Virus record (IMG/VR): IMGVR_UViG_3300010392_000664 | Location: 1-64,000 of that record | Direction: 5' to 3' (one strand) | Source of the DNA: a virus | Length of the DNA stretch: 64,000 nt | Shown: piece by piece, positions 11,078 through 33,128 of the stretch | Position numbering within the stretch: position 1 is the stretch's first letter | Layout: each line of letters begins with the position of its first letter | Translations under genes and position numbers: made by a program | Notes under the pieces: generated by a model | What the model saw: the letters and a program-made list of their open reading frames with translations, nothing else | Told to the model about the DNA's origin: nothing | The model's database searches: none

Positions 11078-11208
11078 TGGCGGTCCCGCAGGGGATTTGA
11101 ACCCCATATCACCCTCTGCAAGGTTTACTGCAACTGAGCTATCTTCGTATTCACCCAGTTGTGTGCATTATTGAGTCTGGGGCAGGAAGACTCGCAGCAC
11201 GCAGGACC
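11078..11208 (-). ncRNA. 131-nt tRNA-like RNA with expanded arms and encoded CCA
   Basis: 8-bp acceptor GGUCCUGC/GCGGGACC followed by G-CCA; T-arm GGGG-UUCAAAU-CCCC; three internal hairpins; exactly intergenic. Confidence 0.75.
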
Positions 11209-26681: not shown

Positions 26682-27002
26682 TTAAAAGTTTGATGTGACG
26701 GGATCAAGATTTCTTAAAACGTAAACGTACTCACCATTGGCAACAGATCCATCCGGTCGTTTCCAATCTCTTTTGAAAATGAGATCATTTTCAAATAATC
26801 GTTTAAGATAAGTGAAAACGGATCTTTGACTGATGCCCAATTTCCTTGCGATCATTTTCGATGGGATAAAGCAGTAACCCTCCTCACCGGAATACCGACA
26901 AAGGAGGGAGTAGATTGCTAATCCAATTGGGCCGATTCTTTCTGCATACTCATCAATCACCTTGTTTTGGACTGAGAAATTGTCATTCATGAAATCGATC
27001 AT
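26682..27002 (-). CDS. stand-alone HTH_36-like winged-helix protein, paralog of the initiator N-terminus
   Basis: IGPIGLAIYSLLCRYS...PSKMIARKLGISQRSV..YLKRL. Confidence 0.75.
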   Translation of the reverse strand: MIDFMNDNFSVQNKVIDEYAERIGPIGLAIYSLLCRYSGEEGYCFIPSKMIARKLGISQRSVFTYLKRLFENDLIFKRDWKRPDGSVANGEYVYVLRNLDPVTSNF

Positions 27003-27337
27003 TTTTGTTTTACTCTGAGAGATTCTATGATTGCTTTTGCCTGTTGTTTGTGTTCAAGCAAAACTGGCTCAGCAACGGTTCCGTCCAAATGCCGACGGAT
27101 TGCTCCCATTTTTTGAATAGCATTGAGGTACTCTATTCTCCTGGTCCAATACCGCAGGAGTTTGAAAGCAACCACATTCCTTAAACCGGGGAGATGTTTT
27201 GTAATTTCATGGCGAATGCCAATAGCGAGAGGTTTTGGATTTTCCTTGTTGAAGATATCTGGAAAATCATACTGAAGCACTTGCAGAGCAACAACACTCT
27301 GCTTCATGATTCTGCTGTGTTGTTTTAATGTCGTCAT
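26999..27337 (-). CDS. ProQ/FinO-domain RNA chaperone
   Basis: FPDIF...PKPLAIGI, YWT....YL, RRHLDG...V..EH..QA family motifs. Confidence 0.85.
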   Translation of the reverse strand: MTTLKQHSRIMKQSVVALQVLQYDFPDIFNKENPKPLAIGIRHEITKHLPGLRNVVAFKLLRYWTRRIEYLNAIQKMGAIRRHLDGTVAEPVLLEHKQQAKAIIESLRVKQK

Positions 27338-27351
27338 ATCATCCCATAAAA

Positions 27352-27387
27352 CAAAAAAACCCAGCCTCAATGAACAGGAGCTGGGTC
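27352..27387 (-). terminator. intrinsic terminator immediately upstream of the ProQ/FinO gene
   Basis: ACCCAGC...GCUGGGU stem followed by a U-run. Confidence 0.7.
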
Positions 27388-27681: not shown

Positions 27682-28017
27682 CTATTCGAGTTCAGCAAAA
27701 TTTTCTGCTGGGTCATACCACACTTCCTTTATGATATTCCCAATTCGATGTATTTTAGAATTGTCGTAATCTATTCGAACATACTTCCCTACCAAGTCTT
27801 CCCATTTTTCAACACCGACGGTTGAAAGGACGTTTTGTAAGAATTCACCACAAAAATCAAATTCATTGGGTTTATCCTCAATTTTTAACACATAACCACC
27901 AAAACCTTGGCCCCCGCCAGTATGATCAATATAAATCCAAGCGGTTAAAAACACACCTCTTTCAAAACCAAGACTTGTGCTGGAGATTCTGCCGTTTGTT
28001 ATTTCTCGTTTGATCAT
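27682..28017 (-). CDS. phage hypothetical protein
   Basis: GGGQGFGGY and GVEKWEDLVGKYVR pattern common in phage proteins. Confidence 0.7.
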   Translation of the reverse strand: MIKREITNGRISSTSLGFERGVFLTAWIYIDHTGGGQGFGGYVLKIEDKPNEFDFCGEFLQNVLSTVGVEKWEDLVGKYVRIDYDNSKIHRIGNIIKEVWYDPAENFAELE

Positions 28018-28051
28018 TTGATTTTTCCTTTTATTTAAAGTTTGGTTTTAT

Positions 28052-28135
28052 TGAACAGGCTAGGAATCGAACCTAGCGAAATTTAGTCTGCTGCGACACA
28101 GGCTGAATCCCCAAATTTCATGACCACATCTGTTC
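28052..28135 (-). ncRNA. tRNA-like RNA A (84 nt): acceptor and T-arm, no D-stem, no anticodon loop
   Basis: GAACAG/CUGUUC-A acceptor; CUAGG-UUCGAUU-CCUAG T-arm; UGUGGUCA D-loop-like linker; 9-bp central helix. Confidence 0.7.
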
Positions 28136-28141
28136 CAAAAA

Positions 28142-28252
28142 TGAACAAGCAAGGAGTCGAACCTTGCAGAACCCGGCCTTCACCATGACCCGCAACCGGC
28201 GAAGCGGTGGAGATTCGAACTCCCTGGCTAGGTTCTGTGACCGCACTTGTTC
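28142..28252 (-). ncRNA. tRNA-like RNA B (111 nt) with two T-arms
   Basis: GAACAAG/CUUGUUC-A acceptor; CAAGG-UUCGACU-CCUUG T-arm; UGCGGUCA linker; 12-bp helix enclosing a second T-arm GGAG-UUCGAAU-CUCC. Confidence 0.75.
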
Positions 28253-28258
28253 AAGGTA

Positions 28259-28441
28259 TCAAAAATCCGATTCTTCCATAATGGGAGCACGGCCAACTTG
28301 TTCGCATAAGCCGTTGACCACATCACACACTTCTTTTGCCGATAAACCGCGTTCATCAATCCCGAATACAAAATTCGACCAGTTGAATTCAGTGGCAACG
28401 TCAATCACATCAACCAGAATGCACATTTGATCTTTTGTCAT
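28259..28441 (-). CDS. hypothetical protein
   Basis: TAATG coupling to the upstream gene (MTKDQMC...). Confidence 0.5.
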   Translation of the reverse strand: MTKDQMCILVDVIDVATEFNWSNFVFGIDERGLSAKEVCDVVNGLCEQVGRAPIMEESDF

Positions 28442-28908
28442 TACACTTCGTGGGTTCCTTCGAACCCTTCCTCTTTTCTGCGAGTTGTTCTGCTTTTCAA
28501 AAATGCCAAAGCATCTCGTAAAGAAGTTATTGCATGTTGATTTTCGGAGCATTTAAATTTAGTAGTTTGGTAGTATACCAGACGATCAAGTGCAGCTTGG
28601 ATCACATCTTCAACAAATGCCCCGTTTTGAGGAATAAGTTCTTCGCCCACCCGAAGTGGGCCTCGTTGCCAACTGATAGTGAATCCGACATCTTGAGTTA
28701 CTCCACCATCAGTATTGCCGTTTTCGTCTGTGAAAAATTTAAGCATCGTCTTCCTTTTCTGCTTTCTGTAACGAGAATTGTCATTCAAAACAATTAGAGT
28801 TTTTGTAGTGCGTTTAACTGTTTTGACACAATCCGTATCAGCTCCGTAACCACGGTCAACAATCACTTTGTCATCAGATTTTAATTCCTGTAACCAAGTA
28901 TAACTCAT
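28441..28908 (-). CDS. Tad1-like anti-defence signal sponge; probable internal start at 28746
   Basis: ISWQRGP...NGAFVEDVI....DRL..YQ..KFKCSEN.HAITSL..AL..L..RT..R...GFEGT matches the Tad1 pattern. Confidence 0.8.
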   Translation of the reverse strand: MSYTWLQELKSDDKVIVDRGYGADTDCVKTVKRTTKTLIVLNDNSRYRKQKRKTMLKFFTDENGNTDGGVTQDVGFTISWQRGPLRVGEELIPQNGAFVEDVIQAALDRLVYYQTTKFKCSENQHAITSLRDALAFLKSRTTRRKEEGFEGTHEV

Positions 28909-28964
28909 TGTTTTCCTCTATTGTATTGTACACCATGTTTATACAAAAAAGACGTGCATTTTGT

Positions 28965-28995
28965 AAAAAACGGTGGGGTTTTTTCAAACCCCGCC
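28965..28995 (-). terminator. intrinsic terminator after the DUF932 gene
   Basis: GGCGGGGUUU/AAACCCCACC stem followed by G and U6. Confidence 0.7.
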
Positions 28996-30151: not shown

Positions 30152-30545
30152 TCAGATAGAGGAATGTTGCTGGAGTTGGTACTCTACCCCACCATTTTTG
30201 GGAATCATGGCCATTGATCCGATGTTTTTCTTGTTTTCGTCAACAAGAATAAGTCTCAGACCTTCTTTTCCCAGATGAATGGTAATTTCCTGCATGACTA
30301 AAGGTTTACTGTTTAGATCTTTCGGATAGTACTCTCCCAAAACATCTTTCAGCATTTCTTCTTCAGTCCAATCCACATAACCTTTTTTGACCCTATTCGA
30401 TGACTGCTGTTTAGATTTGAATACAGCGGCCCAGTTTCTTGCTACTTGGTAAGAGACACCTGGATGGTACTTTTTTTTTCAGGTATTCCTGTATTCTGTG
30501 AATTTTTTGTGTGTTTTTTGTAGGCTTCTTTTTTTCTTCACTCAT
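30152..30545 (-). CDS. hypothetical protein apparently interrupted by a frameshift at an A9 run
   Basis: ATG at 30545; removing one A at 30471-30479 joins it in frame to ORF 30152-30376, giving 130 aa. Confidence 0.45.
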
Positions 30546-30571
30546 GTTGTTTTAAACCTCATCTAGAATTG

Positions 30572-30602
30572 AAAACATCCCCCTGGATTAACAGGAGGAT
30601 GT
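30572..30602 (-). terminator. intrinsic terminator
   Basis: ACAUCCUCCUG/CAGGGGGAUGU stem followed by a short U-run. Confidence 0.6.
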
Positions 30603-30640
30603 GGTAAAAAATTCAGCTTCGCTGCACACATCTTAGAGTT

Positions 30641-30988
30641 TTAGGATTTCAGGCCGAACTTACCACGATCGACCTTCTCAAACCGTGACTCGTCGCCTTT
30701 GACCTTGATCTCGCGAGCAATAGCCGCCGACAACGTAGCGTGAGGAGTTTTGCCTCCCGGTGAAGTCCAGTACCCCTTTTCAGACATCTGCTCAATCAAC
30801 TCTTTCGCATTCAAAGGATTGTCAGATTCACCGAGAACCTTTGCTGCTGCATCAAGAGCACTGGTCTTCTTTTCTTTCGGTTTACTGTCCTTCTTGGGCT
30901 TTTCATCTTTGGTTTCAGCTTTTGCGGCTTCCTTGGTTTCCGCGTCTTTGTTTTCAGCTTCCTTTGTTGCTTTGTTACCACGTGCCAT
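30641..30988 (-). CDS. HARE-HTH (HB1/ASXL/restriction endonuclease HTH) protein with K/E/A-rich N-terminus
   Basis: [10 protein letters not shown]...LNAKELI...[13 protein letters not shown]...REI..KG..SRF.K..RGKF; GGAG SD before 30988; an in-frame Cys-rich extension to 31135 is possible. Confidence 0.8.
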
Positions 30989-32765: not shown

Positions 32766-33128
32766 TCAACAGCTAATCTTCTGAACTGGCACTTTGGCGT
32801 TAAGTGCTTGTTCTACCATGTTATTAGTCCCAAAGCCTCCTGGAAATGCTACAACGAGATCTGGTTTCCCGTCTTCAAGCATTTCTTTATTTCGAATTGG
32901 TCCTGCTGCTCTCCCATAACTGTCCCAATCTGCAAGATAAATTCTCACCGGCATATTACGTGAATAAGCCCACTCCCCAGCAAGGGTATCAGCTCCAGTG
33001 GCCCCACCATGAATTATCTCAACTTCTTTATGCTGCAGTAATAATTCATCAAGAGCAAGATACAGAATGCTTCGTTTTTTGAATTTCCGCCCACCGGTGA
33101 CGAGAATTGTGTAATGATCCATCAGCAT
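32766..33128 (-). CDS. DUF2493 / YspA-like SLOG family protein
   Basis: VTGGR, IHGGATGAD, YGRAAGPIRN..ML, AFPGG.GT..M. Confidence 0.88.
   Translation of the reverse strand: MLMDHYTILVTGGRKFKKRSILYLALDELLLQHKEVEIIHGGATGADTLAGEWAYSRNMPVRIYLADWDSYGRAAGPIRNKEMLEDGKPDLVVAFPGGFGTNNMVEQALNAKVPVQKISC

Follow-up and report, generated by a model that had tools for sequence, protein, structure and literature searches.

The window analysed here is a 64-kb stretch of DNA, the first part of a 93,004-bp IMG/VR virus record (about 98% complete) in which the genes lie on the minus strand throughout. Identical DNA, free of variants, is present in three marine-sediment metagenome runs, and the matching runs are of DNA only. 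The subject of this work is an intergenic gap of 241 nt (28018–28258), 201 nt of which are taken up by two tRNA-shaped RNAs, termed RNA A and RNA B, and the spacer between them. The features of the locus are listed from upstream to downstream.

28958–28992, minus strand: overlapping terminator-like hairpin and promoter-like site, ahead of the Tad1-like gene (consensus scan only)
28441–28908, minus strand: 155-aa Tad1-like gene, which opens the putative transcription unit
28259–28441, minus strand: 60-aa ORF between the Tad1-like gene and RNA A
28142–28252, minus strand: RNA A, 111 nt (from sequence, pair counts, constrained fold and match to covariance model R1)
28136–28141, minus strand: spacer UUUUUG, 6 nt, from the discriminator of RNA A to the first base of RNA B
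28052–28135, minus strand: RNA B, 84 nt (from sequence, fold, pair counts and match to covariance model R1)
27682–28017, minus strand: 111-aa gene, predicted OB-fold-like (phrog_30930), starting 34 nt after RNA B

Gene order around the RNAs

The product of the Tad1-like gene matches Thoeris anti-defense 1 structures in the PDB (phmmer; 8kbb, E=8.6e-9; 7uav, E=2.6e-5), and PF24729 is a precomputed assignment on its relatives. The N-terminus is approximately 50 aa longer than in most of those relatives, which are about 106 aa in length. An initial annotation of this DNA had put the RNAs just downstream of the Tad1-like gene. The identity and upstream position of the gene hold, and the RNAs are co-oriented with it at a distance of 190 nt, but the 60-aa ORF intervenes. 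The ATG of this ORF overlaps the Tad1-like stop codon as TAATG, its end lies 6 nt before RNA A, and it has no family match.

On the other side of the RNAs, a Shine-Dalgarno sequence precedes the 111-aa gene. The product is one of a large phage family: tblastn confirmed 366 relatives in IMG/VR, the motifs GGSGQGFGG and VGVEKWE are conserved, and no Pfam family covers it. An AlphaFold2 model of the protein (pLDDT 88.9) is OB-fold-like; PrgE gave the best structural match, but with a Z of 7.8 the similarity is too moderate for a function to be assigned. Homologues of the gene had tRNA-like matches nearby at only 2 of 80 loci and the position of RNAs upstream is not conserved, showing that the gene is not generally linked to tRNA-like RNAs. 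In one phage (IMGVR_UViG_3300028591_000406, L196:1600-2480) a tRNA array lies directly upstream of a homologue, and in it ordinary tRNAs are mixed with at least two uncalled tRNA look-alikes (e.g. 1921-2043, 123 nt). The 111-aa gene is followed by a ProQ/FinO gene and then the replication module. This phage ProQ/FinO-domain RNA chaperone (26999-27370, minus strand; Pfam E=1.3e-16) lies about 700 nt downstream of the RNAs and heads the replication genes.

The Tad1-like gene has two relatives in IMG/VR, one followed by a true tmRNA and the other by no RNA; the Tad1 neighbourhood of the RNAs is not conserved. The tmRNA in question (IMGVR_UViG_3300010352_002762, L003:516-846) is full-length (Rfam, 116.8 bits; tag DTEYKIAA) and starts 27 nt after the Tad1-like relative, which is 42% identical to the protein studied here. 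A neighbouring DUF932 gene has no relatives in IMG/VR.

The consensus scan returned no promoter match within the 241-nt gap, and the sole terminator-like match beside the RNAs (28167-28149) is composed of the T arm of RNA A and the U-rich spacer. Since the RNAs have no promoter of their own, the terminator match is a T-arm artefact and the remaining signals lie upstream of the Tad1-like gene, they are most simply regarded as parts of a polycistronic transcript. The overlapping hairpin and promoter-like site at 28958–28992 is a candidate start for the unit that would carry them.

Two RNAs on a common plan

RNA A and RNA B share a single layout comprising a 7-position GAACA acceptor stem, an 8-nt unpaired UGYGGUCA linker, a long helix that abuts a 5-bp T stem, a UUCGAnU T loop and a discriminator A. 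Their segments, all on the minus strand, are as follows.

28252–28246: RNA A, acceptor 5' strand
28245–28238: RNA A, linker UGCGGUCA
28237–28231: RNA A, long helix 5' strand
28230–28174: RNA A, interior
28173–28167: RNA A, long helix 3' strand
28166–28150: RNA A, T arm
28149–28143: RNA A, acceptor 3' strand
28142: RNA A, discriminator A
28135–28129: RNA B, acceptor 5' strand
28128–28121: RNA B, linker UGUGGUCA
28120–28111: RNA B, long helix 5' strand
28110–28087: RNA B, interior
28086–28077: RNA B, long helix 3' strand
28076–28060: RNA B, T arm
28059–28053: RNA B, acceptor 3' strand
28052: RNA B, discriminator A

In RNA A the acceptor is GAACAAG/CUUGUUC, the long helix CAGAACC/GGUUCUG and the T arm CAAGG-UUCGACU-CCUUG, followed by A73. 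The corresponding elements of RNA B are an acceptor of six pairs with an A-C mismatch at pair 7 (GAACAGA/CCUGUUC), a 10-bp long helix (UGAAAUUUGG/CUAAAUUUCG) and a T arm of CUAGG-UUCGAUU-CCUAG, again followed by A73. Both linkers keep the GG dinucleotide and both T loops the UUCGAnU consensus. Neither RNA has an encoded CCA. Neither has a D stem, the stretch from acceptor to long helix consisting of the 8 unpaired nt only. The tandem pair reported initially, 6 nt apart and with these features, is thus present in every particular on the minus strand.

That the stems of the two paralogues differ and yet remain paired, as had also been proposed, is borne out by their alignment. For a 22-pair structure, 42 of 44 cells are paired (95.5%), while control structures in which the partners were slid by 1–3 columns gave 25–48%. 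Changes on both sides of a pair, all compensatory, occur at six positions (four of them in the long helix, and one each in the acceptor and the T stem). The basis for covariation here is two paralogues together with one analogue that was chosen by a pairing filter. The 5' motif GAACANNTGNGGTCA has exactly two mismatch-free occurrences in the window, and a scan of the 93-kb genome for an acceptor plus T arm yielded three matches, including A and B, against a shuffle mean of 1.4. A chance origin of the pattern is unlikely. The folding energy of each RNA (z = -1.8) is not significant, so that the support for a selected structure is comparative, in the form of compensatory changes, and not energetic.

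Comparison with tRNA, tmRNA and other known RNAs

A canonical tRNA shares with A and B the 7-position acceptor stem and a T arm carrying the T-loop consensus. Absent from both RNAs are the D stem and a 5-bp anticodon stem with 7-nt loop, and neither is detected by ARAGORN or RF00005. The expectation that these programs would give no canonical match was confirmed: ARAGORN at default settings made zero tRNA or tmRNA calls in the window or the whole genome, and Rfam gave nothing at the gathering threshold and only chance-level matches at E<=10 over 27950-28350. At a relaxed ARAGORN threshold of 80%, RNA B is read as a His GUG tRNA with a weak D stem and three of five anticodon-stem pairs; relaxed calling in RNA A picks out only an internal 93-nt stretch, in a different register from the RNA as defined. 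We therefore rejected decoding tRNAs, given the lack of a default call and the poor quality of this best relaxed reading of RNA B.

A third tRNA-shaped RNA of approximately 131 nt lies elsewhere in the window (11078-11208, minus strand); its acceptor measures 8-9 bp, its T arm is GGGG-UUCAAAU-CCCC, and CCA is encoded. It was not called by ARAGORN, Rfam (E<=1) or model R1 (E<=10), and its 8/4 acceptor/T proportions recall 'allo-tRNA' shapes (PMC5389517).

The layout had been likened to the tRNA-like domain of tmRNA. The topological part of this comparison stands, in that both have a three-way arrangement of an acceptor stem, an unpaired GG-containing D-loop analogue, one helix at the anticodon/D position, and a T arm, with A73 at the end. 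A relationship to tmRNA does not follow. Position 3:70 is A-U in both RNAs, which lack the G3-U70 alanine identity pair, and the interiors (24 nt in RNA B and 57 nt in RNA A) contain no tag reading frame. Pseudoknots and CCA, both features of tmRNA, are also missing, and the linker is 8 nt rather than the 12-14 nt or so of tmRNA. ARAGORN at a 50% threshold gave one spurious 'permuted' tmRNA call, the 'tag' of which is the Shine-Dalgarno region of the next gene. Together with the absence of any Rfam or ARAGORN model match and of a phage SmpB, these differences led us to reject tmRNA.

SmpB, Ro60/TROVE, a CCA-adding enzyme, RtcB and integrase were all searched for in the phage genome and none was found. 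A Y RNA identity was rejected (no family match at E<=10, no Ro60/TROVE gene in the phage), as was an attachment site (both acceptor strands present, two diverged copies, no integrase). The tRNA mimics of a 2026 preprint (skipping-rope and others) are represented by Rfam motifs, and these do not match A or B.

Relatives among phage tRNA look-alikes

IMG/VR, JGI metagenomes, GTDB genomes and GenBank phages yielded no close homologue of either RNA. Searches of GenBank phages by megablast and blastn returned a 28-nt T-arm match only. A scan for the exact signature GAACANNTGNGGTCA...GGTTCGANTCC had 0 matches in IMG/VR, six in JGI metagenomes, all due to chance (ordinary tRNAs or coding DNA), and ten in GTDB genomes, in all of which the 'acceptors' are unpaired.

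When IMG/VR was scanned less strictly, with just the 3' part (the T loop and UGUUCA end, taken from A and B), 115 stretches were recovered. The acceptor is fully paired in 56 unique stretches, and 26 of these start with GAACA. These GAACA-acceptor RNAs are mostly unusual: 23 of the 26 are uncallable as tRNAs and the length of 16 exceeds 95 nt, whereas 10 of 14 RNAs with a GGACA acceptor are ordinary tRNAs. Most begin with GAACAGR-UG and continue with a D arm of the leucine type and a hypervariable middle spanning 30-180 nt; a GCAGG-UUCGAAU-CCUGC T arm, the acceptor 3' strand and A come last, with no CCA. The GAACAGR-UG start, A73 and the absence of CCA are common to most of the group and to A and B, but part of this resemblance is built in, because the 3' motif of A and B served to collect the group. 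No paper describing the GAACA-acceptor or leucine-framed RNAs was found in the literature searched.

A covariance model, R1, was built from 15 GAACA-group RNAs with A and B excluded. In the 64-kb window it matches RNA B (34 bits, E=1e-6) and RNA A (29.2 bits) from end to end, the only other match being an 11-nt T-loop fragment (E=8.2). This evidence is weaker than it looks, since the seed was itself collected with the A/B 3' motif and ordinary tRNAs score 27-46 bits with R1, the same range as A and B.

An independent scan of IMG/VR for the leucine D arm with oversized spacing identified at least 113 oversized leucine-framed stretches. Among the matches listed, 75 of 94 unique RNAs have perfectly paired, sequence-diverse (covarying) acceptors, and A73 predominates. 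The leucine-framed RNAs form a large superfamily of which the GAACA group is one branch. The smallest GAACA members (L117:590-665, L093 and L090) resemble class II tRNAs in which the anticodon loop has 6 or 8 nt and includes UUAG or CUUAGU, and the origin of the group may lie in unusual tRNAs of a suppressor or quadruplet-reading type.

The marks of this class found in A and B are the paired acceptor, U8-G9, a GGUUCGAnUCC T arm, A73, the lack of CCA and a non-decoding insert at the position of the anticodon arm. The mark that they lack is the leucine-type D arm GCGGAAUUGGUAGACGC, and this is also absent from one further RNA, L079:8042-8140, the one true case of a D-stem-less analogue recovered by a descriptor search of 2.65 Mb. 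Its acceptor is GAACAGG and its linker UGAUGGA, a 7-bp helix abuts GCAGG-UUCGAAU-CCUGC, and the discriminator is A73; the RNA sits about 150 nt upstream of a D-arm-bearing group member in the same phage. GAACA-group RNAs are typically set in tRNA arrays, whereas ARAGORN found no tRNA at all in the phage of A and B. The only gene that this phage has in common with the GAACA-group loci and that lies near one of their RNAs encodes an SNF2 helicase; three weaker gene matches all fall within one locus (L058).

Among characterised phages, the best match of R1 in T5 is RNA1, ahead of T5 tRNA-Leu. RNA1 and RNA2 of T5 (30501-30644 and 32959-33083 in AY543070) are annotated as 'tRNA-like stable RNA with unknown functions'. 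Like A and B, they and the leucine-framed RNAs of IMG/VR combine a 7-bp acceptor and a GGUUCGAAUCC-type T arm with U8-G9 and a middle that does not decode, position 73 is mostly A and CCA is not encoded, and the GAACA subgroup has its acceptor sequence in common with A and B as well. They differ in keeping the leucine-type D arm and in usually residing in tRNA arrays, whereas A and B have only UGYGGUCA in its place and a helix abutting the T stem, and lie in a phage without tRNA genes. On the basis of these comparisons, the closest relatives of A and B, overlooked by the initial annotation, would be the GAACA-acceptor, leucine-tRNA-framed phage look-alikes of the T5 RNA1 type.

The T4 rnaC (139 nt) and rnaD (119 nt) RNAs, or species 1 and 2, also form an unexplained tandem of small stable RNAs, separated by 6 nt exactly as A and B are, and rnaC resembles a tRNA in its T arm and 3' end. 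Unlike A and B, the T4 RNAs are found where a tRNA cluster ends, and there is no sequence similarity between the pairs; rnaC gave a weak, partial match to R1 (17.6 bits, model positions 8-103). Replacement of the anticodon arm by another RNA is the principle of the engineered tRNA scaffold, which gains stability via tRNA processing. The scaffold differs from A and B in being a laboratory construct with a full D arm.

A second T-arm-like module in RNA A

The interior of RNA A contains a T-arm-like hairpin, GGAG-UUCGAAU-CUCC (28209–28223, minus strand), seen in this one sequence only. When RNA A is constrained to the tRNA-like fold, its energy (-41.4 kcal/mol) is within 0.7 of the unconstrained minimum (-42.1), and the long helix is extended to about 12 positions. 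Upon this helix stand the GGAG-UUCGAAU-CUCC hairpin, a CCGC/GCGG hairpin and a single strand repeating GCGG(G)UCA. In this model of one sequence, the order of elements would be that of a circularly permuted tRNA top half. YrlA-class Y RNAs (PMC4201824) display the same permuted order of a T-like hairpin, a closed hairpin and a GG strand on a helix; on the other side, RNA A matches no Y RNA family at E<=10, the phage is without Ro60/TROVE, and the likeness is known from one sequence. Second internal T arms recur in the GAACA group (e.g. L023). Two T-arm-like hairpins per RNA, comparable with the RNA A interior, were observed in L023, L024, L020, L084, L098 and L107 from IMG/VR.

RNA A could then be pictured as a two-headed tRNA mimic, with an open tRNA top half formed by its two ends and the permuted one, its closed hairpin standing in for an acceptor, mounted on the far side of the shared ~12-bp helix; together with the single-headed RNA B it would act as a sponge or bridge for host proteins that bind the tRNA elbow or CCA end. 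We hold this to be distinctly unlikely. Were it true, acceptor-end defence toxins would be among the candidate targets, the operon would be a combined counter-defence unit of protein (Tad1-like) and RNA, and GAACA-type frames would be a modular RNA display system of phages.

Weighing the alternatives

We conclude that RNA A and RNA B are probably genuine, selected, non-decoding tRNA-shaped RNA genes, and that they most likely belong to a phage 'tRNA-frame' class as its D-stem-less, stripped-down form. Members of this class would be T5 RNA1 and RNA2, the uncatalogued GAACA-acceptor group of IMG/VR and, probably, T4 rnaC. The sequence itself shows the architecture, the compensatory changes, the lack of a usable anticodon arm, the position in the operon and the resemblance to the class.

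The gene order invites an anti-defence explanation, in which A and B, after CCA addition, would soak up a tRNA-attacking host defence enzyme alongside the Tad1-like sponge. The RNAs are co-oriented with the Tad1-like gene and 190 nt downstream of it, probably in one transcription unit, and the hypervariable middles of the wider class fit an arms race. Yet the group relatives are found in tRNA arrays and not in anti-defence islands, and the one pointer to this possible role is a neighbourhood that is not conserved. PrrC, RloC and PARIS AriB are anticodon nucleases acting on anticodon loops, so that decoys of the kind first suggested, directed at these enzymes, are unlikely because the RNAs have no anticodon loop with which to mimic the substrates; only enzymes of the acceptor end would fit. 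That earlier suggestion fares poorly on both counts, and an anti-defence decoy of any kind is, in our judgement, unlikely. Quite unlikely, too, is that the tRNA shapes serve solely as punctuation, cut by RNase P and RNase Z so that the anti-defence and downstream messages are uncoupled in their stability, with the excised RNAs as by-products. Processing of A and B by these enzymes is predicted and plausible in itself, and the RNAs do lie within an operon, where the scan assigns them neither promoter nor terminator apart from the T-arm artefact, and at the seam between the Tad1-like module and the OB-fold, ProQ and replication module. A single minimal acceptor/T-arm helix would suffice for that purpose, however, and two copies with differing, well-paired long helices, a kept GG linker and the elaborate interior of RNA A exceed what a cleavage signal needs.

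The remaining explanations are much less probable. That A and B are pseudogenes, now functionless and decaying from what were once tRNA or tRNA-frame genes, would account for the missing D stem and anticodon arm, the lack of close homologues and the A-C mismatch at acceptor pair 7 of RNA B. We consider this very unlikely: all three helices stay paired thanks to six compensatory double changes, the T loop and GG linker are intact in each copy, A, B and the spacer occupy 201 of the 241 nt of a gap in a tightly packed genome, and the same reduced layout occurs in an independent phage (L079). It is more improbable still that they are miniature tmRNA derivatives, a tRNA-like domain relieved of its message part that binds SmpB or ribosomes. 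The shared three-way topology and the real tmRNA directly preceded by a Tad1-like relative elsewhere (L003:516-846, 116.8 bits) would suit this idea, but no tmRNA model matches at E<=10, the one ARAGORN call at the 50% threshold is spurious, 3:70 is A-U, there is neither a tag frame nor a phage SmpB, and it is the GAACA tRNA-frame group that the acceptor and T arm match instead. Least credible of all is an attachment site copied from the 3' end of a host tRNA. The usual content of attachment sites that target tRNAs is the T arm and the acceptor 3' strand, and A and B do contain these; against this, each acceptor stem is complete with its two strands, A and B have diverged from one another, the 98%-complete record has no tyrosine integrase, and no matching host tRNA emerged from the GTDB scan.

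Proposed mode of action

For the favoured explanation, that of selected tRNA-frame RNAs, we infer the processing, CCA addition, stability and target of A and B as follows. The RNAs would be transcribed within an operon that runs from the Tad1-like gene through the 60-aa ORF, RNA A and RNA B to the OB-fold gene. Host RNase P would cut at G1 of each RNA, tRNA 3'-end enzymes would trim after A73, and the host CCA-adding enzyme would complete the 3' end. Stacking of the acceptor on the T arm, with an elbow formed between the GG of the linker and the T loop, would provide stability and make the RNAs visible to proteins that recognise tRNA shape. The helix at the anticodon position would carry the non-decoding middle, namely a short irregular hairpin in RNA B and the second T-loop module in RNA A. 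Rather than reading codons, the RNAs might titrate or occupy a factor that reads the tRNA top half, or present the middle on a stable frame, and the top half would be the part under selection. Pairing with the phage genome offers no lead to antisense targets there: the longest complements to the interiors are 10 and 9 nt, equal to those of shuffled controls.

[quoted passage not shown] A73, U8 and GG are present in A and B, while an equivalent of A14 and a variable arm are not evident.

Significance

The wider class is known already from T4 and T5 but is uncatalogued and unexplained; new here are the D-stem-less form, its occurrence in a phage without tRNA genes and, possibly, a double elbow. 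The stable tRNA look-alikes of T4 and T5 have no assigned function in their GenBank records and no Rfam family, and IMG/VR holds well over 100 leucine-framed relatives. Since the phage of A and B has no tRNAs of its own, this pair cannot be a by-product of a tRNA array. Reduced to an acceptor, an elbow strand, one helix and a T arm, it is the most stripped-down form among the RNAs compared and may mark the minimal part that is selected. As a small, two-copy and sequence-diverged pair, RNA A and RNA B are a convenient start for asking which host factor engages such RNAs.
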